Positions 748 to 58,633 are shown, counted from the whole stretch's first letter. The stretch: 63,777 bases of DNA, filler included, from 4 parts of 4 records of this genome joined end to end with filler, not necessarily neighbours in it, one strand, 5' to 3'. Notes: generated from the sequence alone by a model not told the origin. Numbers and translations: made by a program.

Positions 748-780
748 GGGTCGCGCCATGCTGATGAAGGCGGCATAATG

Positions 781-818
781 GCCTGATGATATTTATGGTG
801 CCTAATGATATTTATGTT
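781..818. repeat. 19-bp imperfect tandem repeat between chvI and chvG
   Basis: GCCTGATGATATTTATGGT (781-799) vs GCCTAATGATATTTATGTT (800-818), 17/19 identical. Confidence 0.8.
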
Positions 819-908
819 GATGGTGGGTTATAGTCAGGGAGCGGAATTATAGACACTTCGCGATGGCGTCGATTACTGGGCTGGATTCGTGGCAAGGGTG
901 GATGGCTT

Positions 909-2486: not shown

Positions 2487-2520
2487 GGCTGTTTTTTCTT
2501 TTCTGCTGTTGTAGACTGTT

Positions 2521-3405: not shown

Positions 3406-3531
3406 CCAAACATCACTCTCATCGCAATCTAAATGTGTTTTTTGACGCGATCATATCTATCGCTTTAAAAGAGCGTGTTAATTTGCTATGACAGGGTGAG
3501 ATTTTTACTGACATATAAATGGGATTGAACT

Positions 3532-4926: not shown

Positions 4927-4932
4927 TCACCA

Positions 4933-5430: not shown

Positions 5431-5537
5431 GTTTTGCGCCTCTTCGCAAGGGCTTGCCAACATCAATTCTAGGCTAGGTTACCCGCTTTTGGTAATCGGG
5501 TCTCGCCTTTCGATGTCGTTGCTTTTATAGTTGGCAC

Positions 5538-11500: not shown

Positions 11501-11919
11501 CTGGCCAAAGCCGTGATGTGCCTGACGAAATGGCAGTAGGCCTTATCAACAAGCTGTTGACGCTGATTGATTTGCCTGAATTTGCCCCGCTTTTTGGCAA
11601 GGATGCGTTGGTTGAGGTTCCGATTAATGGGCGCTTGAATGGCATTGGCATCGCTGGCCAGATTGACCGGCTGTTTGTCGATGACAAGCGCATTATTCTG
11701 GCCGATTTCAAAACGGGTCGGCCGCGCGAAGATACAATACCGCGAAACTATCTTCATCAAATGGCGCTTTATGATGGCCTTCTTCAGAAAATCTATCCTG
11801 GGCGAGACATTGATTGTTGGCTTGTTTGGGTTGATACGCTTGATTATCAGCCGATTGATCGTGATGCCAGAGAGCAGGCATTGGCTGATATTTTTGCCGC
11901 TTATGACCCTTTGCGCTAG
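8536..11919 (+). CDS. addA: Double-strand break repair helicase/nuclease AddA
   Basis: SANAGTGKT, DEAQDT, VGDFKQSIY, MTIHGAKGLE, LLYVAMTRA and GQIDRL...DFKTG motifs; ATG 8536 follows GGAG and overlaps the addB stop. Confidence 0.96.
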   Translation: MNEMIARASAAQAKASDPAASVFVSANAGTGKTKLLTDRVLRLLLSGAPADGILCVTYTRAAAAEMRNRIFKRLANWATIPAKALGEDLENMGIVMPSQDMRRRARSLFAEILDNDDGPRVETVHSFCQSILRRFPIEAGVAPHVQLADDDEQSRLKAMARTNILYHPSPELAASVLLIAEAVSEGRADEIVNDFVNRAEGLESPDCLARIESHFRDDLGVVSADQERDVLLARLDLIQDEKLRSVSAALQASGSKTQSDRGAKMDVWLAQTGDGRIAKLSFLVDALFSAGKARKQLSNADLRETVPQIDAIQKQVIEIIKPLLLSQAAQICRDRTMALYRFGMAFNQEYSRLKTQRGLLDYNDLIIRTNNLLAASEAAQWVAWKLDNGIQHLLIDEAQDTSPAQWKLLRRLVDEFFDGDGASPYIASGATSLPRTMFAVGDFKQSIYSFQGANPLVMNQNRNELSSRAKAIQADFRDVPLSVSFRSASPILDLVNKTIPALGGIDDFTIHEMARSGAGGFVELWPVVKGNDDFGAEIIAATQLARRVKSWIGNRCLPSGNFVGAGDILILLRKRGRFFELLLSALQIANVQVAGADRMQLAEQIEIQDLLALGDVMHLADDDLQLAAVLKSPLFGMSEDQLYELAYDRGKASLMSRLMAHRGADGDLGKMADQLARWQSRAEYESVFGFFSFVLVDGGRQKFRDRLGRAVDESLDHFLNLAQNFALGGGVSLLEFLTSIRSSGGEVKRDMDASGTDEVRIMTIHGAKGLEAPIVILPDMLASCGKSEPVLPAADGSVHYWLPPSDSARPVFVEQAREAAATLRTEESNRLLYVAMTRARDGLVIGGWEKPHGVRRLEGSDYALLSGVIKATETATEHDDGTVSITAIQPATIDKDQDKEPKLPPKTPVDDMADWLDRPAPIDDKSGRPIRPSQPGLDHDPQSLAVGAAKQNRQYRHIGLAYGKLAHRLLEQLPAIDPSLRRDRAVQIAGQSRDVPDEMAVGLINKLLTLIDLPEFAPLFGKDALVEVPINGRLNGIGIAGQIDRLFVDDKRIILADFKTGRPREDTIPRNYLHQMALYDGLLQKIYPGRDIDCWLVWVDTLDYQPIDRDAREQALADIFAAYDPLR

Positions 11920-11949
11920 TCAATTAGATAAATATTCGTGACGCCAAGC

Positions 11950-11978
11950 TTGACGCGGCAGCAGCCAAACCATAAATT
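11950..11978 (+). promoter_or_regulatory. Candidate sigma70/RpoH-type promoter for trxA
   Basis: TTGACG-N17-TAAATT, 59 nt upstream of the trxA ATG. Confidence 0.55.
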
Positions 11979-12037
11979 TAAAACCGCGAAGGCAGCGGCA
12001 CATACGCCGCAGATTTTTACGATGAAATGGAATCATA

Positions 12038-35424: not shown

Positions 35425-36036
35425 TTAACGAGAGTAAAGCTCGACAACCAAACGCTCGTCTACCATCGGATCAAATTCTTCACGCTCAGGAACGCGATTC
35501 ACGGTGCCTGTCAACTTCTCGCGATCCAATTCCATCCAATCGCATGCAGGACGAGCCTGGGTTGAATCAGCAAGACGCATTCCAAGCTGCTGTGAACGGC
35601 TTGCCTCTGCAACTTTGACCACATCGCTCGGCTTAACTTGGTATGAAGGGATGTCGACTTTCTTGTCATTCACCAACACGTGACCGTGGTTTACAAATTG
35701 ACGTGCTCCACGACGAGTCGATCCCAAACCTAAGCGATAGCAAACGTTGTCGAGACGCATCTCAAGAATTTGAAGCAAATTCGTTCCAGTAATTCCGTCG
35801 CGACGCTGCGCCTCCTTAAAGTAAAGGCGGAACTGCTTTTCAAGAACACCGTACTGGAAGCGCAACTTCTGCTTCTCAGCGAGAGCAAGGGCATAGTCAC
35901 TCTGCTTACGACGTGCGCCACGTGCACCAACATGCCCCGGAGGGTAAGGGCGGCGTTCCAATGCTTTGGAAGGGCCAAAAAGCGGCACACCAAAACGGCG
36001 ATTAATTTTATCAATAGGGCCTCGATCTCTTGCCAT
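35425..36036 (-). CDS. rpsD: 30S ribosomal protein S4
   Basis: PPGHVG, SDY..L.EKQKLR..YG, LEMRLDN, ARQFVNHGH and VVELYSR motifs. Confidence 0.98.
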   Translation of the reverse strand: MARDRGPIDKINRRFGVPLFGPSKALERRPYPPGHVGARGARRKQSDYALALAEKQKLRFQYGVLEKQFRLYFKEAQRRDGITGTNLLQILEMRLDNVCYRLGLGSTRRGARQFVNHGHVLVNDKKVDIPSYQVKPSDVVKVAEASRSQQLGMRLADSTQARPACDWMELDREKLTGTVNRVPEREEFDPMVDERLVVELYSR

Positions 36037-36071
36037 GGTCTTAAAAGTAAAAGTTTAAATAAACGCGATGA

Positions 36072-36662
36072 TTATACGCGGCGCGCTTTCTTTGGACGAC
36101 ATCCGTTGTGTGGAACCGGCGTCACATCCTTAATTTTGGTGATTTCGATGCCCAACCCCTGAACAGCACGAACGGCTGACTCACGACCTGCACCTGGACC
36201 TTTGACACGAACTTCAGCCTGCTTCAGACCATGCCCCATTGCCTGACGGCAAGCATCTTGAGAAACCAGTTGAGCTGCATACGCGGTGCTCTTGCGAGAT
36301 CCGCGGAACCCCATCTTACCAGAACTTGACCATCCGAGAACGTTTCCATTCGCATCACTGCAAGTAACAATAGTATTATTGAAGGTGGCGTAAACATGAA
36401 CAATCCCAACGTGGATGTTCTTGCTTCCCTTGGCTTTAACAATCTTGTTTTTCTCCGCTTCCTCTCCGCCGTCAAGCTCAAGGAAAATATCCTCGGCCGT
36501 GCGGGGTTTCTCTGGCTTCTCATCAGCAGCAGGTGCCGCTTCAGCGGCCGCAGGTGCGTCAGCAGGAGCTGCGGTAGTTTCTTCAGCAGCAGGAGCTGCT
36601 GCTTCTTCAGGGGCAGCAGCCTCAGCCGCCACCTCTTCTTTGTTTTCAGGTTCGTCAGCCAT
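36072..36662 (-). CDS. rpsK: 30S ribosomal protein S11 with a long acidic N-terminal extension
   Basis: [21 protein letters not shown] and [18 protein letters not shown] motifs. Confidence 0.98.
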
Positions 36663-36682
36663 TTTCGTAAATTATAAAATTA

Positions 36683-37051
36683 TTAACGGACAACACCCAC
36701 TGTCTTCCGCTTCCCTTTACGCGTCCGCGCATTGGTTGAAGTTCGCTGGCCACGCACAGGGAGTCCCTTACGATGGCGAATGCCACGATTGCAGTTAATC
36801 GAAGTTAGACGCTTCAGGTGTCCCTGAAGTTCACGACGAAGATCACCTTCGATCATCACGTTGCTGTTTGTAACAGCGGCGGTGAGACGAGCAAGCTGAT
36901 CATCTGAAAGTTCACCGGTGCGGATATTTGGATCCAAATCAGCTTCTTCAAGGATCTTCTTGGCGGTATTTCGCCCAATTCCAAAGATGTAAGGAAGCGA
37001 CGCTTCAATACGTTTCTCATTGGGGATTTCAACTCCGAGCAATCTAGCCAT
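36683..37051 (-). CDS. rpsM: 30S ribosomal protein S13
   Basis: MARLLGVEIP, IFGIG, EGDLRR and RHRKGLPVRGQRTSTNARTRKG motifs. Confidence 0.98.
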   Translation of the reverse strand: MARLLGVEIPNEKRIEASLPYIFGIGRNTAKKILEEADLDPNIRTGELSDDQLARLTAAVTNSNVMIEGDLRRELQGHLKRLTSINCNRGIRHRKGLPVRGQRTSTNARTRKGKRKTVGVVR

Positions 37052-37084
37052 GGTCTTTAATAAATTCTAAAATTACGTGGGCAA

Positions 37085-37198
37085 TTAGCCCTGACGTTGC
37101 TTGTGGCGTGGGTTTTTACAAATCACGCGCACAATTCCTTCACGCCGGATGATCCGGCAGTCACTGCATAAACGTTTTACGGATGGTCTCACTTTCAT
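37085..37198 (-). CDS. rpmJ: 50S ribosomal protein L36 (zinc-binding form); missed by the ORF track
   Basis: Manual translation [37 protein letters not shown] (37 aa). Confidence 0.97.
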
Positions 37199-37308
37199 GG
37201 AAAAAAATCACGGTGTGATTGAGTCTAACAAATTCCGTGCAGGGTTTGAATAAACCCCAATTCAATGGCACGGGCATAGACCTCGTTATGCCCAGTGCGG
37301 ACGCGAGG
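37199..37308 (-). promoter_or_regulatory. Structured 5' leader of rpmJ-rpsM-rpsK-rpsD (candidate pseudoknot r-leader)
   Basis: GGGCAUA/UAUGCCC hairpin whose loop CGAGG is complementary to upstream CCUCG; further hairpins CCGUGC..GGGUUU/AAACCC..GCACGG and AAUCAC/GUGAUU. Confidence 0.5.
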
Positions 37309-37314
37309 ACGGGA

Positions 37315-37342
37315 TATTTATCACAAAATCAGTTGGTCGCAA
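37315..37342 (-). promoter_or_regulatory. Candidate sigma70 promoter for the rpmJ operon
   Basis: Minus strand TTGCGA-N16-TAAATA with an extended -10 TG. Confidence 0.5.
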
Positions 37343-37379
37343 GGCGCGATTCGAGGTTTATCTAAATTTTAGGGTAAAA

Positions 37380-38240
37380 TTAACAAATTTTTGCAACATC
37401 ATGGCTGAGACCCGCATTTTTCGTCATTTGCGGACGTTCAGTCATCAATCGCGGGCGTGGCGTCAGAATTTCGGCATCTCCTTCAGTCACCAAAACAGTG
37501 TGTTCAAAATGTGATGACAACGCACGGTCTTTCGTTTCTACAGTCCAGTCATCATCAAGAATTTTGATATCCGCAGTCCCTGCGTTCACCATTGGCTCGA
37601 TGGCCAAAACCATTCCGGGTTGGAGACGTGGATTCTTAAATCGCCGATGTCTCATCTCAATTGGATCCCAATAATTCGGGACTTGAGGCTCTTCGTGTAA
37701 ATTTTTCCCAACCCCATGTCCGACAAACTCTTTTACCACGGTATAATTAAACTGAGCCACATACTCTTCGACGGAACTACAAAGTTTTGACAGCAATTCC
37801 CCAGCGCGGGCATGACTAATTGCAACCGCGAGTGACTCTTCGGTAGCAAATAGGAGATCTGCAGCGTCTTCACTAATCTCGCCAACCGGTACACTGAAGG
37901 CATTGTCTCCCACCCAGCCGTCTGGAGTCACAATTCCGACATCAAGCTTCACGACATCGCCATCTTGTATCACGCGATCGCCACCGATTCCGTGAACGAT
38001 CTCTTCATTGACGGAAATACAGATATTTCCGGGGAAATTTCGATATCCAAGAAATGCACTAACGCACCCTTGTTGGGCAATGAGGTCAGCCGCAGCCAGA
38101 TCAATCTCGCGAGTGGTTTTACCAGCCACTACAAGTTTCCCAGTTGCCTGGAGGCACTCTGAAGCAATCCTTCCCGCTTCTCGCAAACCATCGGCCTCTG
38201 CTCCGATACGAATCGGAATTTTATTTTTTCGCTTCGCCAT
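37380..38240 (-). CDS. map: Methionine aminopeptidase type I
   Basis: CISVNEEIVHG, DVG...GD, GHGVG..LHEEP, AIEPM and HFEHT motifs; start at 38240. Confidence 0.97.
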   Translation of the reverse strand: MAKRKNKIPIRIGAEADGLREAGRIASECLQATGKLVVAGKTTREIDLAAADLIAQQGCVSAFLGYRNFPGNICISVNEEIVHGIGGDRVIQDGDVVKLDVGIVTPDGWVGDNAFSVPVGEISEDAADLLFATEESLAVAISHARAGELLSKLCSSVEEYVAQFNYTVVKEFVGHGVGKNLHEEPQVPNYWDPIEMRHRRFKNPRLQPGMVLAIEPMVNAGTADIKILDDDWTVETKDRALSSHFEHTVLVTEGDAEILTPRPRLMTERPQMTKNAGLSHDVAKIC

Positions 38241-38285
38241 AATGCAGCGAGTCATCGCTCCGAAAACCATCGAGCTGAAACCGAA

Positions 38286-39797
38286 TTAGCCTCCGTTGGT
38301 TTTGACCATGTAAATGACGATTCCGGTGATGATAAGAACCGCAGCAAGCAGCAACAACCAGATAATAGAACCCGAACTTGCAGCAGCGCCTTTGCCACCA
38401 CCTCGGTCAAATCGGCCGCGAATACGACCTTTTCGAAGAAATCCATCGTAGTGACGCTGAATGAGGTGAGTCTCCACCTGACGCATGATGTCCAGCAGAA
38501 CTCCGACCATAATGAGCAATCCAGTTCCACCGAAAAACTGAGCAGCCACCGGTGGGACACCCATCAAACTCGTGAGAATTCGGGGCAGCACCGCAACAAT
38601 CGTCAGGAAAATTGCTCCTGCAAAAGTCAGGCGACTCATGGTCTTATCGAGAAATTCAGCAGTTGGCTTCCCTGGGCGCACGCCAGGGATATATCCGCCA
38701 TTCTTTTTGAGATCGTCAGCAATCTGGTTTGGCTGGAACATCGTAGCCACCCAAAAATAACTGAAGAAGAAAATCATCAACGCAGTCGCCGTGTAGAAAA
38801 GCCAATGGTCACCCGATCCGAGAATTGAAGCCCACTTTTGCGCCCACGGCGCATCAGAAATCATTCCAATAATCTGAGAGGGGAAGAGCAGAATTGCCTG
38901 AGCGAAAATGATCGGCATCACACCTGCATAGTTCACCTTCAAGGGCATGTACTGGGTCTGCCCACCAAACTGCTTACGTCCTACAACCCGCTTAGCGTAA
39001 TTGATCGTGATTCGACGTTGCGCCTGAGTAATCGAGATTACTGCCGCAATCACAAAGAAAAGGAAAGCTAGCAAGATCACCAATTGCATCGGCTTTAACA
39101 GGTCATCCCCGGCGCCAGCAACAAACGTCTGGTAAACCTGATAGATTGCACCCGGCAGAGCATAGATAATGTTGACGGTGATAATCAAAGAAACACCGTT
39201 TCCGATACCTCGCTCGGTAATTTGATCACCAATCCACAAAAGTAACATTGAACCAGAAGTGACAATCACAACGGTTCGTAAAATAAATCCCAGTCCCCCA
39301 TCTGGAACAAGCACTTTAGTAGCCCCGCCTGCGATATCCCGCAAAAACGGGTTTGCCTCGGGAGTAATGAGAGATTTCGCCAACATCCATCCCTGAACAA
39401 GGCAGAGGATAATTGTGACGTAACGGGTGTACAAATTGATTTTCTGACGCCCTCCATCTTCCCTTGCCAGCTTTCCAAGCTGAGGAACAACTGCCGTCAA
39501 AAGCTGCATCATGATCGACGCACTAATGTATGGCATGATGCCAAGCGCAAAAAGCGCAGAATTTTGAAGTCCTCCACCACTAAATATGCTCATCATCGCG
39601 AGCATCGCAGCGGGTCCTCCTTTACCTTCGCCAGATTGCTCCTGAATCTGATTCATCCAGTCCGCCAAGACTGAGGCGTCCACGCCAGGAAGCGTAATCA
39701 CAGCACCCAAGCGAATGACCACAATCACCAACAAGGTGAAAATGATCCGCTGACGAAGTTCAGGAATCTTAAACGTGTTGGCAAATGCGGAAATCAT
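38286..39797 (-). CDS. secY: Preprotein translocase SecY with an extra C-terminal hydrophobic helix
   Basis: FALGIMPYISASI, ITERGIGNGVSL, AGVMPIIFA, IPGVRPG, FGGTGLLI.VGV and RHYDGF motifs. Confidence 0.98.
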   Translation of the reverse strand: MISAFANTFKIPELRQRIIFTLLVIVVIRLGAVITLPGVDASVLADWMNQIQEQSGEGKGGPAAMLAMMSIFSGGGLQNSALFALGIMPYISASIMMQLLTAVVPQLGKLAREDGGRQKINLYTRYVTIILCLVQGWMLAKSLITPEANPFLRDIAGGATKVLVPDGGLGFILRTVVIVTSGSMLLLWIGDQITERGIGNGVSLIITVNIIYALPGAIYQVYQTFVAGAGDDLLKPMQLVILLAFLFFVIAAVISITQAQRRITINYAKRVVGRKQFGGQTQYMPLKVNYAGVMPIIFAQAILLFPSQIIGMISDAPWAQKWASILGSGDHWLFYTATALMIFFFSYFWVATMFQPNQIADDLKKNGGYIPGVRPGKPTAEFLDKTMSRLTFAGAIFLTIVAVLPRILTSLMGVPPVAAQFFGGTGLLIMVGVLLDIMRQVETHLIQRHYDGFLRKGRIRGRFDRGGGKGAAASSGSIIWLLLLAAVLIITGIVIYMVKTNGG

Positions 39798-39827
39798 CGT
39801 GAAGAAGCGTTATCTAAAAAACGAACC

Positions 39828-39870
39828 AGCAGGGTTGAATCATCGATCCAACAGGGTTGATTCGTTGAAC
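39828..39870. repeat. Two partial copies of the REP-like element between rplO and secY
   Basis: 39850-39870 AACAGGGTTGATTCGTTGAAC matches 29866-29886 at 20/21; a degenerate copy lies at 39828-39848. Confidence 0.7.
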
Positions 39871-39879
39871 TCTCGGGGG

Positions 39880-40350
39880 TTACTCTGAATCGCTAGAAGC
39901 GGCTTTCGGCTCTGCAACAGAACCACCCGCTTTTTCGATTTTTTCCTTGGCTGACGCACTCACCTTATCAACAGCAACGGTCAGTTTCTTTGTAAGCTCA
40001 CCTGAACCGAGGACCTTAACAGCATCCCAGACGCCTTTGACTAAACCAAGTTCACGAAGAGAAGCTTCATTAACCTCAGCTCCATCTTCGAAACGCTCTT
40101 CCAATGTCGTTACATTGATGACCGCATAGGTAGTTTTGAACTGCTTGTTGTTGAAGCCGCGCTTTGGCAAGCGCCGGTTAAGTGGCATCTGACCACCTTC
40201 GAAACTAGGGCGAATCGAAGCGCCTGAACGTGACTTCTGTCCTTTGTGGCCTTTTCCGCAGGTTTTACCCAATCCGGAACTCTCACCACATCCGACTCGT
40301 CTTTTCCGATGCTTTGCACCGGGATTTGGTTTTAAAGTATTTAAACGCAT
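39880..40350 (-). CDS. rplO: 50S ribosomal protein L15
   Basis: GKTCGKGHKGQKSRSG, FEGGQMPL.RRLPKRGF and SASAKEKIEKAGG motifs. Confidence 0.98.
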   Translation of the reverse strand: MRLNTLKPNPGAKHRKRRVGCGESSGLGKTCGKGHKGQKSRSGASIRPSFEGGQMPLNRRLPKRGFNNKQFKTTYAVINVTTLEERFEDGAEVNEASLRELGLVKGVWDAVKVLGSGELTKKLTVAVDKVSASAKEKIEKAGGSVAEPKAASSDSE

Positions 40351-40400
40351 GACACTATCCTTTCGTCAATATTCTGGCAGATCTGTTCAATATCCGTCCG

Positions 40401-41219
40401 TTAGAGGGAAGCTTTATCGGCAATTTTCTTACCGCGAAGCTTATAAACTTCTTCTTTTGTGCGAAGACTTTCAAGTCCCGCAAGAGTTGCCTTTACAACA
40501 TTGGCGTGATTGTTCGATCCCATTGATTTCGCGAGGATATCCTTAATCCCCGCAGCTTCAACAACGGCACGAACTCCACCACCGGCGATGATTCCAGTTC
40601 CCGGAGAAGCGGGGCGCAAAAGAACGCGACCACCACCAAACTCTCCAAGCACATCGTGAGGAATCGTGTTTTCAGTGATTTTTACAGAAATCATCGACTT
40701 CTTCGCGGTCTCACTAGCTTTACGAATGCATTCAGCAACCTCTTTAGCTTTACCAAAACCATAACCAACTTTTCCGTTTTGATCACCAGTGACTACAAGA
40801 GCACTGAAGCTGAAGCGACGACCACCTTTAACCACCTTCGAACAGCGGTTGATGAATACGACTTTCTCGAAAAGTTCAGGACCGTCACTGTCGCGATCAT
40901 CACGACGACCTTGTCCACCGCCACCTTGGCGAGGAGGACCAGAGTTGCCAGCTTGTTGCTGCAATATTGCTTCAGCTCGCATAAGCTTCTCAGACTTCTC
41001 TTCACCACCTACTGCCGCAGCAACAGTTTCGTCAGGAGAAGTCTCAGCACCAGCTTCGGTGACTGCGTCTTCGCCAGTCGCTTCCTTAGGTGCAGCAACC
41101 GCTTCAGCAGCAGTTGCCTCCTCAGGGGTAGCAGCCTTCTCCTCAGGGGTAGCAGCCGCTTCGACAGCAGCATCATCTACAGTTTCCTCTGGAGTGTTAT
41201 TTTCGGTTTCTTCGCTCAT
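40401..41219 (-). CDS. rpsE: 30S ribosomal protein S5 with a long acidic N-terminal extension
   Basis: [21 protein letters not shown] and [12 protein letters not shown] motifs; about 110 aa Glu/Ala-rich N-terminus. Confidence 0.97.
41118..41157. repeat. Coding tandem repeat (period 21) in the rpsE extension
   Basis: CTCCTCAGGGGTAGCAGCC at 41118-41136 and 41139-41157, encoding AATPEE twice. Confidence 0.85.
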
Positions 41220-41248
41220 TTAAAAATTAGGTAAATTCAAGGCGTCGA

Positions 41249-41348
41249 NNNNNNNNNNNNNNNNNNNNNNNNNNNNNNNNNNNNNNNNNNNNTTAATTAA
41301 TTAANNNNNNNNNNNNNNNNNNNNNNNNNNNNNNNNNNNNNNNNNNNN
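41249..41348. other. Artificial contig spacer
   Basis: N44 + TTAATTAATTAA + N44. Confidence 0.99.
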
Positions 41349-42716
41349 GGCCGAGTTTCAACCTCTCTAGCCAAACTAACTGCGCCTATGATGATGGGGG
41401 TTTCGTCGAGCATCGTGGTGCAAACCCTAGAGATGGGGTTTATCGGACAATTGGGTACGGCTTATGTCGCCGCCATTACATTTACCTTTCCTTTGGTGAT
41501 GATCCTCACCAGTATCGCCTTGGGCATCAGTATTGGCACCTCGTCTGTTATCGCGCGAAGCGTGGGCAGCAAACAATACTCAAACACTAGCGGCAGCGAA
41601 CCTGCTGATGCGAATGATGTACCTCGTCTGGGTACCCATAGTCTTATTTTAGTCTTTGTCGCCATGGTGGTCATTGCAGCGCTCTGCTGGTTAATTATTG
41701 ACCCACTGTTTCTCGCCATGGGTGCAGAACCAGAAATGCTGCCCCTCATTCATAGCTACTTAGATATTTATCTGCCCGGCAGCGTGCTGTTCACCACGGC
41801 CATGATTTGCGGCAGTATCATGCGCGCCAACGGCAGCGCTGCCATCCCCGGCATTATAATGACGGTGGGTTCCGTGATTAATCTAATCCTTGACCCTTTT
41901 CTTATCTTCGGATGGTTTGGACTACCCGCCATGGAACTGGCTGGCGCAGCCACGGCCATGACCTTGACAAGATTTTTAACGCTCGTGGTCACCCTTTGGT
42001 ACGTGTATCACGGCTCGATGGTTTTAACTAAAGACGTGTTCAAAGGTTGGTGGACCTCCACCAAACGGATACTGCACATTGGCGTACCGGCCATTGCAAC
42101 CAACCTTATCGGTCCATTTACAGCGGCCTACATTACGTTTCTGATTGCAGACTACGGCCAAGATGCAGTGGCTGGCTTTGGTGTCGCAGGCAGACTTGAG
42201 GCATTAGCTGCCATGCTGATGTTTGCATTGTCCGGGTCAATTGGCCCCTTCGTGGGACAAAATTGGGGCGCGCGCGAGTTCAATCGCGTACGTCGCGGCG
42301 TAAACGTAAGTTACATTTTCAGTTTGAGTTGGGGCTTTATAGTCGCTGTGCCCCTTTTCTTTTTCGGTGAAGACATTGCACGGCTCATAGATGCAAAACC
42401 TGAAGTGGTTAAAGTTGCGGGTATTTATTTAGCACTGGTGCCCTGGAGTTATGGTCTGTGGGGGGTGCTTATGATGTCCAGCGCGTCCTTCAATGCATTG
42501 GGTAAACCGCTGCCCAGTACTGCGTTGTCCTTCGCAAGAATGATTGTGGTCTATGTGCCACTGGCAACTTTCCTCAACGACACAATGGGTTACGTTGGCA
42601 TTTTTGTCGCCACTCTTATTAGCAACGCACTGTTTGGTGTGGTGAGTTGGAAATGGTTCAGCGTCAGACTGGCCAATATGACAAAGATGATAAAAACTCA
42701 ATCCGTGAGCGCGTAA
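41349..42716 (+). CDS. MATE family efflux transporter (5'-truncated)
   Basis: Frame open to the contig edge (GRVSTSLAKLTAPMMMG); NLILDPFLIFG...GAA.A and FVGQNWGA motifs; about 12 TMs. Confidence 0.92.
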   Translation, partial: GRVSTSLAKLTAPMMMGVSSSIVVQTLEMGFIGQLGTAYVAAITFTFPLVMILTSIALGISIGTSSVIARSVGSKQYSNTSGSEPADANDVPRLGTHSLILVFVAMVVIAALCWLIIDPLFLAMGAEPEMLPLIHSYLDIYLPGSVLFTTAMICGSIMRANGSAAIPGIIMTVGSVINLILDPFLIFGWFGLPAMELAGAATAMTLTRFLTLVVTLWYVYHGSMVLTKDVFKGWWTSTKRILHIGVPAIATNLIGPFTAAYITFLIADYGQDAVAGFGVAGRLEALAAMLMFALSGSIGPFVGQNWGAREFNRVRRGVNVSYIFSLSWGFIVAVPLFFFGEDIARLIDAKPEVVKVAGIYLALVPWSYGLWGVLMMSSASFNALGKPLPSTALSFARMIVVYVPLATFLNDTMGYVGIFVATLISNALFGVVSWKWFSVRLANMTKMIKTQSVSA

Positions 42717-43815: not shown

Positions 43816-46361
43816 CTAAGAGGGTGCCTTGGCTGAGTAAGCACGCACTTTACCCAACAACTCTTTAGCCAGTTCATCTAGCCTCTCAACAGTTTTAGGT
43901 ACTGGCCTTATTTTCGCTATACAAGATTCTTGTATAGCACTGCATATATGGTGCAGTTCATCGAAGCCATAGCCGGAAAAGACACCTGACAATGTGTGGC
44001 AAGCCCTATCAACTTTGACAAAGTCATCGGCCGCCAATCCGCTATTTACCTCTTCAAGGCGCGCCTCAACCTCAATAGCAAATACTGCCAGCGCTTCTCG
44101 GAAGGCAGTCTCGCCCATCAACTCTCTGATTTCCTGCATTCGCGTTCCACCTAAGCTGACATTGGAATCCTCTTGGTCTAACCACATTGCGATGCGGCTG
44201 CTGAGTAGGTCGTAATCAATCGGCTTAGTTAAAAAGTCGTCCATCCCCGCTTCTAAACACGCACGCTCATCCTCTTTATAGGCCTTCGCCGTTAGCGCAA
44301 TAATCGGTTGCTGAAAATTTTGCTCGCGCATCCAACGGGTTGCTTCTAACCCGTCCATACCCGGCATCTGCACATCCATTAACACCAGACCAAATTGATC
44401 TTGGAGTGGTCGATCCTTCGTGATTATTTCACAGGCCGCAAGACCGCTGTCTACCACCTCAACGGTGTATCCACGTCTTTCTAAAGCGGCTTTAACGACC
44501 AATTGATTGGGCGCGCTGTCTTCCACAAGGAGTATGCGTTTGGTGGCATTAATGGGACCAGTTCGCCTGTATGCAGGCGGTGTCGCCACAACGCCCGGCA
44601 CAATTTGCAAAGGCAGTTCTAACGTAAAACAACTGCCTTCGTCCTTACGCGACACAACGCTTATATCTCCCCCATCAAGTGGGCTAGATTCTGACTGATA
44701 GACAGACCAAGTCCCGTACCCAAATATTTTCTCGTGTCTGAATCATCAGCTTGAACAAAAGCGGTGAACACATCTTCTGCCTGAGTCAGGGTCATACCGA
44801 TCCCGGTATCTCGAACGTTAATTTTATATGCAGGACAGTTCTCTGGAATCTCTGGGGCATCACCCTCAAGCGTCGAATCCGCATCAAGTTCCAGCGATCT
44901 GACCATTGAAGACTTCTCTACACTGACTTCGATCTCACCGCTTTCGGTGAACTTAATGGCATTGCTCAGCAAGTTGGAGATAATTTGCGTCACCTTATGA
45001 TCATCGCCTAACGTAAAATATTCACGAACATCTGTGTCTCGCATGCGCAGCTTAATACCTTGGGCTTTCGCCGTGGGTTTGTACAGGGCAACTAAATCTC
45101 TCGCCATGGCTGTAGGGGAAAAAGTGTTTTCATCTACACTCATTTCACCGGCCTCAATCTTGGAGTAATCGAGCACATTCTTCAGCAAACTCATCAGGCG
45201 CAGGCCAGAATTTTCCGCTGTAGTGAGTAAACTCACCTGGTGTGGGTCCTGCAAATCCGCTCTCACTAAGTTAACAATGCCTAGCAGGGCATTAAGTGGC
45301 GTGCGAATCTCATGACTCATGGTGGCCAAAAAACGGCTCTTTGCTTCGTTGGCAATTTCCGCAGACGATTGCGCTTCGCGCATTTTTTCTTTATTCGCGT
45401 ACTCTTCACGCAAGTCACGCATCTCAGCGCCAAAATATACGTCGCCGGTTAAATTGACTGAACTTACCGCTAACTCAACGGGTATCTCTTCACCCGACCT
45501 GTGCAGACCTTGGATCTCTACCCTACTGCCTACAATTTTCTCCTCACCGGTTTCAAGAAAACGTGCGAGCCCGTGGTAATGTGCTTTACGTAAGCGCTCT
45601 GGAATTAAGAATTCCGCCATTGGCTGACCAATAATATCTTTTTGCTGATAACCAAATAGCTCCTCTGTGGCTTTGTTCACATCTACCACTAAACCCTCGC
45701 CGTCTATGATCACCCGCGCACTCAAACTACCGTCCATTAGCAACTGTTTTATGGCTTGGTGGTCTTGCCGAGCCAAGATACTCACATCTGTTGATAGAGC
45801 GTTGAGGCGCACCAAAGCCATTTTCGTCTCAGTATGGCTGGTTGGTGAAAACTCTAACTCCATGGCATCAGCAGTGCCATGGTTAGCAATAAAAGACAAC
45901 GGCCTAGTGTCGAGGGACGAATCGGCAGTTGCTTTAGACCGCGAGTCAAACAGCTGATCTAGGTGCAAACGAATGTTCTCTATGTCCTCTGAATTCTTTA
46001 CAAAAGAGGCGAGGTTTAGCCCAACCAACAAACTGCCTGGCAATAAATTGTAGGCACCTTCATTGGCCAATAAAATCTTACCGACTGAATCAACCCAAAG
46101 ATAACCCGGGCCTTGACCATCTAAACCGGCATCAAACTGCAGTTGGTTGCGTTTTTGCTAAAGCAAAATATGCCTGAACTGAGCAGACGCCAATAAAAAC
46201 AAAGCAATGGCTACCAACAGGGTCGGCGCAGTAATGCTTCGATCTCCGGCTCCAAGCACCATGACTACCTGATAGAGAAGATAGGTTGCAACCACAACGT
46301 ATACGCCAGCAAAGAGCACAGAAAAAACATCCCTGCGCTGCCAAAACTTAGGTCTGAACAT
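43816..46361 (-). pseudogene. Hybrid sensor kinase (2TM-PAS-PAS-HisKA-HATPase-REC-Hpt), disrupted by an in-frame TAG (46158-46160) and a 1-nt deletion in a G-run (44669-44673)
   Basis: ORFs 46158..46409, 44661..46070 and 43816..44655 join into one 848-aa protein: FLATMSHEIRTPLN, NLLSNAIKFT, DTGIG, GTGLGL, LMG[GDISVV]SRKDEGSCF, LMDVQMP, FLTKP, ACHTLSG. ATG 46361 follows GAGG. Confidence 0.85.
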
Positions 46362-48042
46362 GATTCGCCTCGGTATCGTTCTGGCCAACTTTTGACGCGC
46401 GCTCGCCAACAGGGTGATTGGGTTCTACTTCCAGATGTTCACCATCATAGATGTCCAGAAAAGCCAGCGCCTGAGCAATTTCCAAGTACAACGCGGCAAG
46501 TTCTTTAGACCAAAAATCATCGCTAGTGGCGGACCTATCAGTAGGCTTGGAGTTGGCTAAAAATTGCAATTGGCTTTCTGACAATTTCATACTCAGATTC
46601 CTTGCTGCCAACGCAAGCTTATCAAAGCCGAAATTGTCCGCAGAGCAAACCAACATGTATAAGTTATGTTTCACGTCAGAGAAATTACTTAATTTAATGC
46701 CCTCTAACTGAAGCGAGCGATGACGTAATTCATCAGAAAACCGCTCAAGTAAATTAAACACACCGACAACGCCAATGATCTTGGCAAATTCTGCCAAACG
46801 CTCAACAGGCATATTGGCTTCTAAGTCTTTTTGGTCGTGCATACCCAACACGCGACTTAACGCTGTTAGCAGATCTTTATCCTTAATTGGTTTAGATAAG
46901 AATTCGTTAAACCCCGCCTCTAGGCAGGCTTGCTGATCAGCTGCAGAAACATACGCCGTCAGCGCAATCAGAGGCACTCTTGCGAGCAAACCGGGCAGGT
47001 TGCGAATCTCCTTCGCAGCAGTTATGCCGTCCATATTCGGCATCGCTAAGTCCATTAACACCGCCGCATATGCTTTCTGGCGCACAGCAGTAAGCGCTTC
47101 CAAACCATCTGAAGCTAGGTCTACCGTGTACCCAGCAGCGGTCAAAATCGATTTTAAAACCAAGCGATTGGAGGGTGAATCATCGACCAACAAAATGCTG
47201 CTAACGTCGGGGTCAACCAAAGACCCGGTGGTGCCGTATGCGCGGAGCGCCTCAGAGGCTGCTCGGTCAGAAACTTGGTTTAACGAGGAGGTGCTGATTG
47301 TCGGCGCGTCTACTGGTGCCTCCACGGTTGCATTGACTGGCAACTTTATAGTCCATTGAATACCCTTGCCAATTTCGCTGGTGGCACCTATGTCGCCCCC
47401 GGCAAGACGCATCAACGCTCTGGCAAGGCATAGGTTCAAATTCAAATCTAAACCATTGGACATGTTCCAATTCAGAGCTTCTCCAGACCACTCATTGAAA
47501 CTGAATAAATTGTCTAACTCTGCTTGGGCCAGGCCCAAACTAGTATCCAAAATCTGTACCCCAACCGGGCCTGCGGGGGTTTTACAGACTAGGATATCCA
47601 CACGCTCGCGGCGACTGAACATCACGGCATACTGCAATACAGCGGTGAAGCTCTGTGTAAATTTATCTTCATCAACCACAAACTCTGCTACCGAGGCTTC
47701 ATTTATGGCCTCTGTATAGCCCACGACAATTGCAACTTGGCTAGAACGGGGGTCTAGCAAAACTTTATCTACAATAGATTCTATAAGTTGCCCAAGGTCT
47801 ACCCGTTGATTACTGACGGGCATCATTTGATTTTCTATCAAATCTAGGTCACTAACGGTCTGCAACAACGAAATTAAGTGTTGTATTGATAGGTTTGCAT
47901 GCTGGACTAAAACCTGTTCGACCGTACCTTCTGTGGCATTGAGCTTGTCACCCACCAAGGACAAAGTGCCTTGTATGGTATTCAGCGTGGTACGAATGTC
48001 GGGTCCGGCCAATGACAGCAACTGCGAATGCATTGACTTCAT
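46348..48042 (-). CDS. Pseudo-histidine kinase: degenerate HisKA/HATPase + intact REC + degenerate Hpt
   Basis: LAGPDIRTTLN in place of MSHEIRTPLN; AVLQYAVMFS, DTSLG and GLDLNL in place of the N/G boxes; REC LVDDS...LMDLAMP...FLSKP; Hpt NLYMLVCSADNFGFDKL. Confidence 0.8.
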   Translation of the reverse strand: MKSMHSQLLSLAGPDIRTTLNTIQGTLSLVGDKLNATEGTVEQVLVQHANLSIQHLISLLQTVSDLDLIENQMMPVSNQRVDLGQLIESIVDKVLLDPRSSQVAIVVGYTEAINEASVAEFVVDEDKFTQSFTAVLQYAVMFSRRERVDILVCKTPAGPVGVQILDTSLGLAQAELDNLFSFNEWSGEALNWNMSNGLDLNLNLCLARALMRLAGGDIGATSEIGKGIQWTIKLPVNATVEAPVDAPTISTSSLNQVSDRAASEALRAYGTTGSLVDPDVSSILLVDDSPSNRLVLKSILTAAGYTVDLASDGLEALTAVRQKAYAAVLMDLAMPNMDGITAAKEIRNLPGLLARVPLIALTAYVSAADQQACLEAGFNEFLSKPIKDKDLLTALSRVLGMHDQKDLEANMPVERLAEFAKIIGVVGVFNLLERFSDELRHRSLQLEGIKLSNFSDVKHNLYMLVCSADNFGFDKLALAARNLSMKLSESQLQFLANSKPTDRSATSDDFWSKELAALYLEIAQALAFLDIYDGEHLEVEPNHPVGERASKVGQNDTEANHVQT

Positions 48043-48073
48043 TTTTGGGCACTCAAAACAACACGCCGGGAAA

Positions 48074-48090
48074 CGCAACCTTGGTGCCAA
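48074..48090 (-). promoter_or_regulatory. Sigma54 (-24/-12) promoter
   Basis: Minus strand TTGGCAC-CAAGG-TTGCG matches TGGCAC-N5-TTGC; 31 nt before ATG 48042; about 440 nt of upstream non-coding space. Confidence 0.75.
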
Positions 48091-48535
48091 AAAAGCGCTT
48101 TGACAGGGTTTTGAACATTACGTTTGGGCGCACGGCCAAGATGTCGAAATCGATCAGGATCGAGGGGAAGAATTTGACCTAGAGAGGCGGGCATAGACTG
48201 CCGCAGCCGTGTATATCCGGACAATTTTTCGTCATTGCCAAACAGAATAGTTGTATCTTTATTTGTGACCACTTACCGCCCACTCGCAAATGTAAATCGG
48301 GCACCCGATGGGGGCACCAACGGACAGAATAATCGCTGATCAGCAGGTTGAAGGAGCCAAACGACTGCTATGGGGTATGTTTTGATCGACAGTCGGTAGT
48401 TTTTTTACAAAAAAAAACGCCAATGCATGACGTTTTGTGAACTTTTCAGTAACAAACGAATAGTATTAGGTGCATTATTCCCGACAGACGGGCCACATTC
48501 AGAGTTATTGTTAACTATAAGTTTGTATATCTGAG

Positions 48536-49393
48536 CTATTCCACAGCTAGCCAATAGCCTCCCTGAGGGTGATGCTTCACATGCCCAGCGGTAGGAGTGG
48601 CAAAATGCGTTCCGATGATCAAAATATCTTCATCGACATAGCGCTCTAGTAAGGATTCTCGGGTTTTCTGCCCCTGCTTTTGATCGAAATCGGCAGACGA
48701 ACACCAATGGGTTTTAGTCATTTGCACTGGGTGATGAATACAATCGCCTGTGATTAAAGCCTCACTACCATTAGCGCTGATATGCACACTCACATGGCCA
48801 GGCGTATGCCCTGGCGTTGGCTGCAACTGCACCTCATCGCAGAGCTTGTGGTCCTCTTCAACCAGATCAACTAGGCCCGCTTCCACCACTGGACGCACAG
48901 AATCCGCTAACACCGGCCCATAAGTAGATTCATCTTCATTGGCATCCCAATAGGCCCATTCTTTAGCCGCAATGAGGTAGCGTGCGTTAGGAAATGTTGG
49001 CACCCATGCGCCGTCCACCAGCATGGTATTCCAGCCCACATGGTCTACATGTAGGTGGGTGCACAAAACCGTATCAATGCTTTCACGCGGATAGCCGGCA
49101 GCCGCCAGATCCTGCAAAAAGTTGGTTTGCAAATGCGACCAATTGGGAATGTTGCGCTCTTTGTCGTTACCTATGCAGGTGTCAACTAAAATCCGGCGAG
49201 TACCGGTGTCTATGACCAATGCATGGACGCTCATAATCAAATTACCCTGCTCGTCCATGAAGTGGGGTTGCATCCACTCTATGGCCTGACACGCTTCCCG
49301 TGTGGCATCGGGCAAAATAAAGCGTGAGCCGCCCGTTGTTTCCATTTCGATAATACGGGTGATTTTCACATCACCTATTTGCCATTGATTCAT
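48536..49393 (-). CDS. Metallo-beta-lactamase-fold hydrolase
   Basis: THLHVDHVGWN, PTFPNARY, TPGHTPGH, TGDCIH and GTHF motifs. Confidence 0.92.
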   Translation of the reverse strand: MNQWQIGDVKITRIIEMETTGGSRFILPDATREACQAIEWMQPHFMDEQGNLIMSVHALVIDTGTRRILVDTCIGNDKERNIPNWSHLQTNFLQDLAAAGYPRESIDTVLCTHLHVDHVGWNTMLVDGAWVPTFPNARYLIAAKEWAYWDANEDESTYGPVLADSVRPVVEAGLVDLVEEDHKLCDEVQLQPTPGHTPGHVSVHISANGSEALITGDCIHHPVQMTKTHWCSSADFDQKQGQKTRESLLERYVDEDILIIGTHFATPTAGHVKHHPQGGYWLAVE

Positions 49394-56343: not shown

Positions 56344-58284
56344 ATGGCAAGCGTGAGCGAAGGATATCAGGTTTTTGCCCGGAAATACCGCCCCAAGACG
56401 TTTGACGACGTTTTAGGGCAGGATCATGTCGTACAGACACTTAAGAATGCGATCGAACAGGAGCGTTTGGCCCATGCTTATTTGTTCGTCGGGCCCCGTG
56501 GAACGGGAAAAACGTCGACCGCACGGATTCTCGCGAAAGCACTGAATGGCCCGGGCGGTCCGAAAGTAGATTTTGATCCGGATGATCCGCTTTGCGAAGA
56601 AATTGCGGCTGGAAACAGCCTCGACGTGCTCGAAATCGATGGAGCGTCAAACAACGGCGTCGATCAGGTTCGTGATCTTCGTGACACGGTAAAATTTGCG
56701 CCGTCTTCGGGCAAATTCAAAATTTACTACATTGATGAGGTCCACATGCTGACGACAGCAGCGTTCAATGCGTTGCTGAAGACACTGGAGGAGCCGCCGG
56801 ATCACGTGAAATTCATCTTTGCGACAACGGAGCCGCAGAAGATTTTGCCGACAATCATTTCGCGGTGTCAGCGTTTCGATCTCCGCCGCATCCCGACGAA
56901 CATTATCGCCGATCACCTTGGTTTTATCGCCACGGAAGAAGGTGTGAAGCTTTCAGAGTCAGCAGCTTTTGCAATCGCCAAAGGAGCGGAAGGCGGTATG
57001 CGTGACGCGCAGTCGATGCTCGATCAGCTCGTTGCGTTTTGCGGTGAGGAAATCGGAGAGAAGGACGTTCTCGATATTTTTGGATTCAACTCGAACGAAG
57101 CGATCGTGGAACTCGGCGGTCTGATTCTGAATCAAGACAACGCCACTGCTTTAGAGCGCGTTCACACTCACAGCGAGTCTGGAAAAGATCTTACGAAACT
57201 GCTTTCCGATTTGATCGGTTATTTCCGTCATTTGCTCGTTCTGCGAGTCGATCCGAATTCGGAAACCAGCGATGTGCCGCCTGAGCTGCGTGAAGTTCTC
57301 GAAACGCAGAAAAACCTCGTCGACACCTCGCGATTGTTGTCATTGATCGACCTGCTGGCCGAAACCGATGCCCGGATGAAATGGGCGCCGAACAAGAAAT
57401 TGCATCTTGAGATCGCGGTCATCAAATCAATTCAAAACATCAGTGAAACCTCTTTGGATGAAGTCATTTCAATGATTTCCAGCGCGGCAGGAGTAACCGG
57501 AGTGGCTCCAGATGAGGGTAGCATCCCACGAGCACAGGCTCCGCAGAGCCCCGTGGTTTTTGCCGCTCCACCGAAATCAGTTTCCGAACCAGCAGCCGCC
57601 GTTTCAACACCGGCACCGGCTCAGGAAAAACCGGCCGCACTTGTTGACGTTGTTCCGCCAGTTGTGACGCCAAAACCTGCTCCAACTCCGGCAACACCAG
57701 CTCCGGCTCCAACACCTGCAGCTCAACCTACGCTCGCACCCGCTGCGCCCGAGGAAGAGTCCGCTCCAACAATCGTTCCTTTATCTGGACCTGTTTCGGG
57801 AATGGAACTGTGGGAAGCCGCCTGCCCTCGCCTGATTGCTGCCCGTCCGCTCATCGAAACGTGGTTGAGCGCCGCAAAGTTTTTGAGCCATGAAGGCATG
57901 GATTTTACCGTCGGATTTTCTTCGATGCAGGGATTTTACCGGGATTCAATGCTGCGCCATCAGGAATTGCTCGATTCAATCGCCACTGAGCTTGCCGGAA
58001 CGACTACCCGGGTGACTTTAGAGGTTCGGGATGATATCGCCCCGGCAGACCCGCCGGAAATCGAAGATGACGAACCGGAACCGAACGCAGTTGTTGCTGC
58101 CGCTCCTAATGCCGACAACGCAGCGACACCCCAGGCAGGAGCGCAACAAGTTCAATCGGCCGGCGCTGATCAAGCTCCCGTTGAAGATGATGCGCCGCCG
58201 GAGCCTGCAGAACCCGATTTTCACGACGATCCACTGATCAAAAAAGCGATGGAAGAATTCAAAGCGCGTGTCGTCGAAAGCTAA
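56344..58284 (+). CDS. dnaX: DNA polymerase III subunit gamma/tau (start may be GTG 56353)
   Basis: YQVFARKYRP, GPRGTGKT, EIDGASN, IDEVHML, NALLKTLEEPP, SRCQRF and GGMRDA motifs. Confidence 0.97.
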   Translation: MASVSEGYQVFARKYRPKTFDDVLGQDHVVQTLKNAIEQERLAHAYLFVGPRGTGKTSTARILAKALNGPGGPKVDFDPDDPLCEEIAAGNSLDVLEIDGASNNGVDQVRDLRDTVKFAPSSGKFKIYYIDEVHMLTTAAFNALLKTLEEPPDHVKFIFATTEPQKILPTIISRCQRFDLRRIPTNIIADHLGFIATEEGVKLSESAAFAIAKGAEGGMRDAQSMLDQLVAFCGEEIGEKDVLDIFGFNSNEAIVELGGLILNQDNATALERVHTHSESGKDLTKLLSDLIGYFRHLLVLRVDPNSETSDVPPELREVLETQKNLVDTSRLLSLIDLLAETDARMKWAPNKKLHLEIAVIKSIQNISETSLDEVISMISSAAGVTGVAPDEGSIPRAQAPQSPVVFAAPPKSVSEPAAAVSTPAPAQEKPAALVDVVPPVVTPKPAPTPATPAPAPTPAAQPTLAPAAPEEESAPTIVPLSGPVSGMELWEAACPRLIAARPLIETWLSAAKFLSHEGMDFTVGFSSMQGFYRDSMLRHQELLDSIATELAGTTTRVTLEVRDDIAPADPPEIEDDEPEPNAVVAAAPNADNAATPQAGAQQVQSAGADQAPVEDDAPPEPAEPDFHDDPLIKKAMEEFKARVVES

Positions 58285-58318
58285 CTTTTTTAAACCAACC
58301 CATTTCCCCTATCTATTT

Positions 58319-58633
58319 ATGAATATCGCAAAGATGATGAAGCAGGCCCAGCAGATGCAGAAGAAAATGGCATCAATGCAGGAAGAACTCGCAGAGCAAA
58401 TCGTGGAAAAAAGCGTGGGCGGCGGAAAAGTTGTCGTGACAGCAAACGGCGCGGGTGACGTGCTCAGCATTAAAATCGACAAAGCGGTGGTTGATCCAGA
58501 CGACATCGAAATGCTCGAAGACTTAGTGCTTCTCGGCGTTCAGCAGGCGATTGCTGAGGGCAAAGAAAAATCATCGTCAGAAATGGGCAAGCTGACCGAA
58601 GGCATGGGATTGCCACCGGGGATGGGACTCTAG
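58319..58633 (+). CDS. ybaB: YbaB/EbfC nucleoid-associated protein
   Basis: MMKQAQQMQ, GGGKV.V and DPDDIEMLEDLV motifs; downstream of dnaX. Confidence 0.95.
   Translation: MNIAKMMKQAQQMQKKMASMQEELAEQIVEKSVGGGKVVVTANGAGDVLSIKIDKAVVDPDDIEMLEDLVLLGVQQAIAEGKEKSSSEMGKLTEGMGLPPGMGL

Follow-up and report, generated by a model that had tools for sequence, protein, structure and literature searches.

A sensorless histidine kinase-like protein with an intact receiver, encoded beside a heme-PAS-like hybrid kinase

Our analysis of a 63,777-nucleotide stretch of DNA, referred to here as the window in its whole length, concerns two adjacent genes on its minus strand, gene 1 and gene 2. Gene 1 encodes what is, judging by its residues and alignments, a kinase-like fold that has neither the phospho-accepting histidine of the H-box nor the ATP-binding motifs and that retains a complete set of phospho-acceptor residues in its receiver domain. 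Gene 2, which it overlaps, encodes a membrane-anchored hybrid kinase with a heme-PAS-like domain and is disrupted twice in the window. We propose tentatively that the product of gene 1 is an accessory modulator of the gene 2 kinase. The parts of gene 1 are as follows.

46348..48042, minus strand: gene 1, a sensorless pseudo-hybrid histidine kinase (open reading frame (ORF) of 564 amino acids, ATG at 48042, TAA at 46350-46348) with DHp-like, CA-like, receiver and Hpt-like domains.
47818..48042, minus strand: DHp-like helical hairpin, amino acids 1-75, with the H-box LAGPDIRTTLN and Pro14 (48003-48001) at the His position.
47323..47817, minus strand: CA-like alpha/beta domain, amino acids 76-240, in which the ATP-binding motifs are absent.
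46843..47202, minus strand: receiver domain recognised by Pfam, amino acids 281-400, with D287/D288, D331 (47052-47050), T362 and K384.
46423..46842, minus strand: putative Hpt-fold domain, amino acids 401-540, with Tyr462 (46659-46657) at the canonical His position and His459 (46668-46666).

An earlier note on this DNA had described gene 1 as an open frame of 564 amino acids (48042-46348) with no sensor domain, with Pro in place of the H-box His (48001-48003), eroded N- and G-boxes, Tyr at the Hpt His position and a receiver that keeps its DD, D, T and K residues, and all of these features were recovered. Pfam recognises a receiver domain (96.1 bits, cut-off 30.2) and a HATPase_c match that stays under its cut-off (21.6 bits against 26.4), and it detects neither HisKA nor, at E ≤ 0.01, Hpt; gene 1 and gene 2 both fall below the cut-off of every NCBIfam model. 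Pro14 stands opposite the H-box His of gene 2, and Tyr462 opposite its Hpt His, in BLASTP, MAFFT and profile-profile (hhalign) alignments alike. The Hpt-like domain and the Hpt of gene 2 match up column by column. Neither the N-box Asn nor the G2 box remains, and G1 has the sequence DTSLG; in the receiver, the acidic pair D287/D288, D331, T362 and K384 are all in place. Three residues ahead of Tyr462 lies His459, which is nearly invariant in the gene 1 family. Since all gene 1 orthologues begin with MKSM, the gene is taken to start at ATG 48042 and not at TTG 48090; the TTG was rejected both on this ground and because the sigma-54 motif described below lies inside the extension that it would create.

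The gene 1 family appears to be narrow. A word-indexed search of 5.8 billion proteins with gene 1 returned 14 relatives (P0001-P0014) of about 510-565 amino acids and 96-32% identity, none of which has a precomputed HisKA domain, and the proteins from P0015 onward are ordinary hybrid kinases. A profile search of 1.84 billion representative proteins added P0121 and P0129; among its 150 best matches listed, the short single-stretch full-length ones number four (P0002, P0010, P0121 and P0129), the others being long multi-receiver kinases, so that four representatives of the family at 50% identity are found among these 150. The frame of gene 1 is open in all eight of the genome loci that we compared (L001-L008) and in all 16 database members (P0001-P0014, P0121 and P0129), which their sources annotate as 'response regulator' or 'CheY-like'. 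Searches of the literature on pseudokinases, phosphorelay receivers, His-less kinases and FixL/FixT hybrids yielded no description of the family, and a paper on Hmr (PMC11481889) proved to have no bearing on it.

Residues were counted in an alignment of 21 rows of the gene 1 family with 54 canonical homologues. The H-box position is occupied by Pro in 18 and by Ala in 1 of the 19 family rows that cover the site, compared with His in 54/54 canonical sequences, and the position five residues further on is Thr, Ser or Glu in 20/20 family rows and Pro in 54/54 canonical ones. On this alignment the helix-breaking Pro of HisKA has, in effect, been shifted from +5 onto the position of the lost His. 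The N-box Asn is found in none of the 21 rows, which have Tyr, His or Phe instead, and the G2 box is replaced, with a three-residue insertion; G1 reads DTSLG in the window's clade and is still DxGxG in several distant members. In the L008 orthologue (L008:1096-2490) a short masked stretch (X) in the CA-like domain hides the residues of the G2 region. Receiver residues D331, T362 and K384 are present in 21/21 rows and the equivalent of His459 in 19/21. The canonical Hpt position is more varied, with Tyr in 10 rows (the window's clade), Phe in 1, Ser in 1, Pro in 2 and His in 7; the His is kept in a distant clade only (P0013, P0014, P0121, L004, L005, L007 and L008), whose motif, HNLHMMRYSAEHFGF, resembles the standard Hpt motif. 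To the question raised earlier, whether loss of the histidines together with retention of the receiver is conserved, the answer is yes for the H-box His, absent from 19/19 rows, and for the receiver, and no for the Hpt His.

Loss of the H-box His is by itself not rare, since it is replaced in 3 of the 161 homologues whose alignment covers the site (P0260, P0207 and P0205). What is unusual in the gene 1 family is that the DHp, CA and Hpt modules are all silenced, the receiver is kept and the partner is fixed. The three other proteins are unrelated hybrid kinases with Arg or Tyr for the H-box His (ISREIRTP, MSYEIRTP and MSREIRTP), whose HisKA and HATPase_c matches in Pfam are otherwise normal and whose motifs are intact; P0260 has the receiver closest to that of gene 1 (47% identity).

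Structure prediction indicates that gene 1 keeps the DHp hairpin and the CA alpha/beta fold of HisKA-type kinases. The full-length AlphaFold2 (AF2) model (pLDDT 78.4, pTM 0.45) consists of a hairpin of two helices (4-34 and 41-70), an alpha/beta domain, a receiver fold and a helical bundle, the lid region of the CA-like domain (186-195) being disordered (pLDDT < 50). A Foldseek search of the PDB with this model retrieved ShkA (6qrj, E 4.8e-17), HK853, ZraS, DivL (4q20, TM-score 0.67) and RetS, and the matches to the histidine kinase folds of ShkA, HK853, RetS and DivL have a probability of 1.00. The highest target-normalised TM-scores for the N-terminal module are those to the RetS kinase region, namely 0.78 for 6dk7_A and 0.82 (rmsd 2.9) for 7n0e_B, in which this region is complexed with the DHp of GacS. 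An Atlas feature search with gene 1 likewise pointed, at 0.99, to clusters of histidine kinases. Residues 401-545 were also modelled by themselves, and this model (pLDDT 81.2, rising to about 90 around His459; pTM 0.74) has Hpt proteins in 8 of its 10 top Foldseek rows, among them rice and maize HPt, AHP1, HptB (7c1i, TM-score 0.79), BarA and ArcB, at weak E-values of 0.09-1.4, none of them ≤ 0.001. Weak E-values are usual for small helical bundles. By BLASTP the Hpt-like piece of gene 1 has no match at 1e-3 among 260 homologues.

The silenced modules nevertheless appear to be maintained. In a Nei-Gojobori comparison of L001, L002 and L003, the proportion of synonymous differences (pS) is 0.64-0.91 in gene 1 and reaches 0.97 over the comparison, so that the synonymous rate (dS) is saturated and the proportion of nonsynonymous differences (pN) is given beside pS rather than as a numerical dN/dS ratio. 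By domain, pN is 0.08-0.10 in the DHp-like hairpin, 0.09-0.15 in the receiver and 0.18-0.21 in each of the CA-like and Hpt-like domains, compared with 0.34-0.39 in the linker and C-terminal tail. Mean pairwise identity within the window's clade is likewise highest in the DHp-like hairpin (0.88), followed by the receiver (0.81) and the CA-like and Hpt-like domains (both 0.70). The low pN of the folded domains and the strong conservation of the DHp-like one argue that the 'dead' modules are being kept, and on these comparisons the dead copy is not decaying at the family level. The per-domain selection test suggested earlier thus yields a pN far under pS in all four folded domains, in place of a ratio.

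The partner of gene 1 has the following features in the window.

43816..46361, minus strand: gene 2, a membrane-anchored heme-PAS-like hybrid kinase with two transmembrane helices, a PAS-like region, a FixL/DosP-like PAS, HisKA, HATPase, receiver and Hpt, disrupted twice.
45387..45746, minus strand: FixL/DosP-like PAS of gene 2, with His261 (45581-45579) at the heme-ligand column.
46158..46160, minus strand: in-frame TAG in gene 2, just past the two-helix membrane segment, due to a substitution at 46159.
44669..44673, minus strand: run of 5 G in gene 2 (6 G in L001), giving a -1 frameshift in the G2-box region that parts the HATPase from the receiver and Hpt.

In the PDB, the second PAS domain of gene 2 is matched best by FixL (1d06, E 1.5e-14; 1y28; 1dp6) and DosP (9bgv), and His261 is aligned with a His in all four printed alignments. 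This is the column that we take to be that of the heme ligand in FixL/DosP. The residue is kept in 7/8 gene 2 orthologues, and these sequence matches support the description of the domain as heme-PAS-like, as it had been called earlier. The eighth orthologue (L006:11577-14090) has Tyr at the ligand column and keeps all of its kinase, receiver and Hpt residues. The H-box His, the N, G1, F and G2 boxes, the Asp, Thr and Lys of the receiver and the Hpt His are invariant in the 8/8 orthologues. In the window, gene 2 consists of three ORF pieces over which Pfam recognises PAS, HisKA, HATPase_c, Response_reg and Hpt, so that the earlier claim that it keeps every catalytic motif is correct piece by piece and fails for the gene as a whole, cut as it is by the TAG and the frameshift.

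The lesions of gene 2 are best judged against L001, a locus from a metagenome-assembled genome labelled 'K189A clade bacterium' that is 99.79% identical to window positions 55670-41349 and carries an intact gene 2 of 848 amino acids (L001:9735-12281). Over these 14.3 kb the two sequences differ by 29 substitutions and one indel, the latter being the missing G in gene 2; the TAG and this 1-base deletion are thus 2 of the 30 differences, and no other disrupted gene occurs in the stretch common to both. Where the window has TAG, L001 reads TTG (Leu), L002 GTG and L003 ATG, and with sense codons in these three and an uninterrupted frame in 8/8 loci, programmed read-through or frameshifting in gene 2 was ruled out. 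That there are two independent disabling changes favours real pseudogenisation in this strain; it is also possible that a homopolymer error and one miscall in the assembly account for them. Gene 1 of the window has four derived amino acid changes (G159P, A270G, K481R and V533D) relative to L001 and three close database relatives, beside three synonymous differences, and these changes fit a relaxed constraint, the numbers being small. Taken together with the nonsense codon and the frameshift in gene 2, they suggest that the module in this strain is probably inactive or decaying, unless the lesions are assembly errors.

The search for homologous pairs proposed in the earlier note showed the pair to be conserved: a gene 2 orthologue lies directly downstream of gene 1 in 8/8 loci that encode a family member, with one gene order. 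In the window, the ATG of gene 2 (46361) and the stop codon of gene 1 (46350-46348) give the 14-nt overlap reported earlier. The overlap is 14, 8 and 8 nt in L001, L002 and L003, where the start can be placed; a gap of 3 nt separates the genes in L008 and one of 40 nt in L007, and in L004, L005 and L006 the longest gene 2 ORF overlaps gene 1. The two families are collinear over DHp, CA, receiver and Hpt (hhalign probability 100, E 6e-66, 27% identity over 442 columns), which makes an ancient tandem duplication plausible as the origin of the pair. When gene 2 orthologues are ranked against 260 other homologues, they take places 1-6, 8 and 11 for the full-length protein, and places 14-130 for the DHp-CA part and 5-76 for the receiver part. 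The paralogy asserted in the earlier note is therefore borne out as collinear homology and falls short of a demonstrated duplication, gene 2 orthologues coming first for the full-length comparison only.

Our preferred reading, to which we give not quite an even chance, is that gene 1 is an accessory modulator of gene 2, in which a phospho-acceptor receiver, as a sink, competitor or feedback element, and docking modules would tune the signal of the sensor. Asp331 of gene 1 would take a phosphoryl group from gene 2, either via the Hpt His or straight from the DHp His, and the dead DHp/CA and Hpt modules would serve as docking surfaces, through a mixed dimer with the DHp of gene 2 or through unproductive receiver binding. 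The net effect would be a damping, insulation or feedback on the output of an oxygen-type or other heme-ligand signal. Several observations weigh against this proposal. Gene 1 changes fastest in its block (68% identity to L002/L003 and 28-35% to L004-L008, compared with 71-74% and 43-49% for gene 2 and 80-93% and 50-79% for the non-signalling neighbour genes), so that the constraint on it is weaker than on its neighbours. The constancy of the pairing rests on two clades, the genomic context of P0010, P0011 and P0012/P0129 lying outside the loci covered. The gene order shared by L002-L008 (long-chain acyl-CoA synthetase, MBL-fold hydrolase, gene 1, gene 2, acyltransferase, MATE transporter, HisN, PurN) takes in housekeeping genes (HisN and PurN), for which reason the linkage partly reflects relatedness and carries little information on function. 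Finally, 7/21 relatives keep the canonical Hpt His, and by the pattern of these residues the ancestral protein may have relayed phosphate onward rather than absorbing it, as His459 could still do here.

Part of the same evidence would also suit a RetS-type inhibitor acting without phosphorylation, in which the DHp of gene 1 and that of gene 2 would form a mixed four-helix bundle that blocks autophosphorylation, with a receiver that is regulatory or vestigial. The top target-normalised structural matches of gene 1 are to the RetS kinase region, alone and with the GacS DHp, the DHp-like hairpin is its most conserved domain in the window's clade, and the closeness or overlap of the two genes in 8/8 loci suggests a translational coupling that would favour co-assembly. 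We nonetheless consider such an inhibitor unlikely, given that the receiver Asp, Thr and Lys are present in 21/21 rows and that the receiver and the DHp-like domain have equally low pN, which argues that phospho-acceptance matters; the architecture of gene 1 also differs, with no periplasmic sensor and one receiver instead of two. Gene 1 could alternatively be a terminal response regulator or scaffold, whose receiver ends the gene 2 relay and whose kinase-like and Hpt-like modules bind a third partner. The lack of a DNA-binding regulator near the pair and the annotations 'response regulator' and 'CheY-like' would agree with this, and there is a precedent in PsmA, a hybrid-kinase-like pseudokinase described as acting as a scaffold (PMC12963549). 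However, gene 2 has an Hpt of its own, which would normally feed a separate regulator, perhaps elsewhere in the genome, and the genes conserved beside the pair (acyl-CoA synthetase, MBL-fold hydrolase, acyltransferase and MATE transporter) include no candidate for a third partner, so that we regard a scaffold as decidedly unlikely.

The remaining explanations are weaker still. The D/E-x-x-T/N motif, which the PsmA report connects with the phosphatase activity of HisKA proteins (PMC12963549), is kept in the His-less DHp of gene 1 (P-D-I-R-T), with Asp at +1 and Thr at +4 of the former His site in the window's clade, and gene 1 could therefore be a dedicated phosphatase that dephosphorylates the gene 2 receiver or its own, in the latter case as a self-draining sink. 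The motif is not family-wide, +1 being His, Ser or Gly in P0010, P0013 and P0014 and +4 being Ser in the distant clade, and we hold this activity to be improbable. A non-canonical relay, in which His459 would be a shifted phospho-acceptor passing phosphate from the gene 1 receiver to a downstream regulator, could explain the near invariance of this residue (19/21) and the retention in the model of an Hpt fold with pLDDT of about 90 near it; clade B, moreover, keeps the canonical His as well, so the domain was ancestrally a working Hpt. Yet the conservation of His459 even in relatives that have the canonical His suggests that its role is structural. The window's clade has also lost two elements of the Hpt motif, Lys/Arg at +3 and a small residue at +4, and the Pfam Hpt model finds no match; the chances of such a relay seem slight. 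As for gene 1 having no function, as a decaying remnant of a duplicated kinase, its rank as the fastest-evolving gene of the block, its four derived changes in the window and its broken partner would all point that way. The open frame in 8 loci and 16 database members, a pN far under pS in every folded domain and the replacement of His by a specific Pro across lineages that are only about 30% identical speak against it, and by these sequence comparisons this reading, which we find barely credible, is already contradicted at the family level.

To our knowledge, pseudokinases that regulate true histidine kinases come from a few well-studied cases, namely RetS, DivL and PsmA. RetS of Pseudomonas aeruginosa combines a periplasmic sensor with two receivers; its H-box His is retained, and its gene does not lie next to gacS. 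If the role proposed here for gene 1 is correct, the two are alike in being built like hybrid kinases and in modulating a genuine one, GacS in the case of RetS, and they differ in that gene 1 has no sensor, no His and a single receiver, carries an Hpt-like tail and overlaps its partner gene. AHP6 of Arabidopsis is a free-standing pseudo-Hpt lacking the phospho-His and is believed to compete with genuine Hpt proteins for binding to receivers; gene 1, by comparison, carries its His-less Hpt at the C-terminus of a bacterial protein of several domains, and the His persists in its clade B relatives. In DivL of Caulobacter the sensor domains are of the PAS type, there is neither a receiver nor an Hpt, and the regulator that is sensed, DivK~P, is a separate protein, whereas gene 1 has a receiver fused to it, with Pro in its DHp and Tyr in its Hpt. 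DivL is kinase-like as gene 1 is, and it is reported to have its phospho-His replaced (by Tyr) and to regulate the hybrid kinase CckA (10.1101/812529, PMC9430884). According to its report, PsmA of Streptomyces venezuelae is, like gene 1, a conserved hybrid-kinase-like protein with no H-box His or ATP-binding residues and with a receiver; it binds DivIVA via its N-terminal part, and it is described there as having N-terminal PAS domains, no Hpt, no D/ExxT/N, no partner kinase gene and a dispensable receiver Asp (PMC12963549). Gene 1, in contrast, lacks a sensor, carries a domain with a putative Hpt fold, retains DxxT and is tied to a partner kinase. Gene 2 for its part appears to be like FixL and DosP in the best match of its PAS (E about 1e-14), in the His at the ligand column and in the HisKA kinase that follows, and unlike them in being a hybrid with two transmembrane helices, an extra PAS-like region, a receiver and an Hpt, and in having no adjacent FixJ-type regulator.

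What sets the gene 1 family apart is that its members are sensorless, keep only the Asp station of a four-station relay, are locked to one partner and differ in the Hpt His between sister clades, a difference that provides a natural series for the change from a relay branch to a decoy or sink and that would also offer a clue to the way in which abundant, uncultured marine bacteria adjust a FixL-like sensor. The family is uncharacterised and narrow, and the general principle of regulation by pseudokinases is already known. A bolder version of the proposal, speculative and in our view unlikely, is that the family represents a new class of built-in attenuator, an 'Asp-only' paralogue of a hybrid kinase in which both His stations are silenced and their folds kept as decoy docking sites, which would be co-translated with a heme-PAS hybrid kinase and would set the gain of oxygen/redox sensing in oligotrophic marine gammaproteobacteria, the clade with the Hpt His being an intermediate on the way from a relay branch to a pure sink or decoy.

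Two signals flank the 5' side of the pair.

48075..48089, minus strand: sigma-54-type -24/-12 motif TGGCAC-N5-TTGC, exact, 32 nt upstream of the ATG of gene 1.
48414..48436, minus strand: terminator-like hairpin downstream of the MBL-fold gene, in a block conserved with L002 and L003.

The hairpin suggests that gene 1 and gene 2 may form their own transcription unit. The link to sigma-54 drawn in the earlier note survives in part. The motif has the -24 GG and -12 GC of the consensus at a suitable distance from gene 1 and a single exact match in the window, where by our own arithmetic about 0.1 would be expected in 64 kb on both strands, so that its place just ahead of gene 1 is suggestive, and it is identical in L001. 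It is not conserved in the other relatives: the best upstream match in L002 is 7/11, no match of at least 8/11 lies within 300 nt upstream of gene 1 in L002, L003 or L006, and 8/11 is found only in L004 (at -226) and in L008 (at -31, without the GG/GC core), so that the link is one at the species level only. Pfam finds no Sigma54_activat domain (enhancer-binding protein) in the window, and, in agreement with the absence of a nearby regulator noted before, there is no DNA-binding regulator or sigma-54 activator within about 10 kb of the pair, the nearest regulators being YbaB (58268-58633) and one of OmpR type (13-747). Upstream of gene 1, about 200 nt past the MBL-fold gene (window 48330-48535) are conserved with L002/L003, for example GCACCTAAT...TTCGTTTGTTACTGAAAAGTT.ACA and TACCG...GTCGA, and the 250 nt adjoining gene 1, with the sigma-54 motif, are not. 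A sigma-54-like site within the conserved block was considered and rejected, there being no GG in the window and the spacing being wrong in L003.

The MBL-fold gene upstream of gene 1 (48536-49393, minus strand) is 92-93% identical in L002/L003, and its product is similar to quorum-quenching lactonases, with E-values of 1e-22 for the AidB model and 1e-20 for the YtnP model, both matches lying far under the cut-offs. On the other side, the match between the window and L001 ends at 41349, within the 5' end of the MATE transporter gene, whose ORF starts at 41388 in the window and has 442 amino acids compared with 463 in L001. Leftwards, within 35425-41388, the window goes on to a ribosomal cluster (S5, L15, SecY, Map, S13, S11 and S4), and L001-L008 have, past the MATE gene, HisN, PurN and a protein of 255-264 amino acids. 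The break at 41349 is either a rearrangement that truncated the transporter or a chimeric assembly join. An Rfam scan of the whole window gave 0 matches at the gathering score, and a tRNA scan 0 genes. At its far end (1-12000) the window carries a ChvG/ChvI-like pair, made up of a kinase with Stimulus_sens_1 and Sensor_TM1 domains (909-2486) and the OmpR-type regulator mentioned above, followed by a RapZ-like protein, SAH hydrolase, TsaE and an AddB/AddA-type nuclease-helicase pair (5538-11919). This gene set is more typical of Alphaproteobacteria. The G+C content is also slightly higher on this side, at 0.50-0.54 as against 0.45-0.52, which bears on the question of a chimeric contig.

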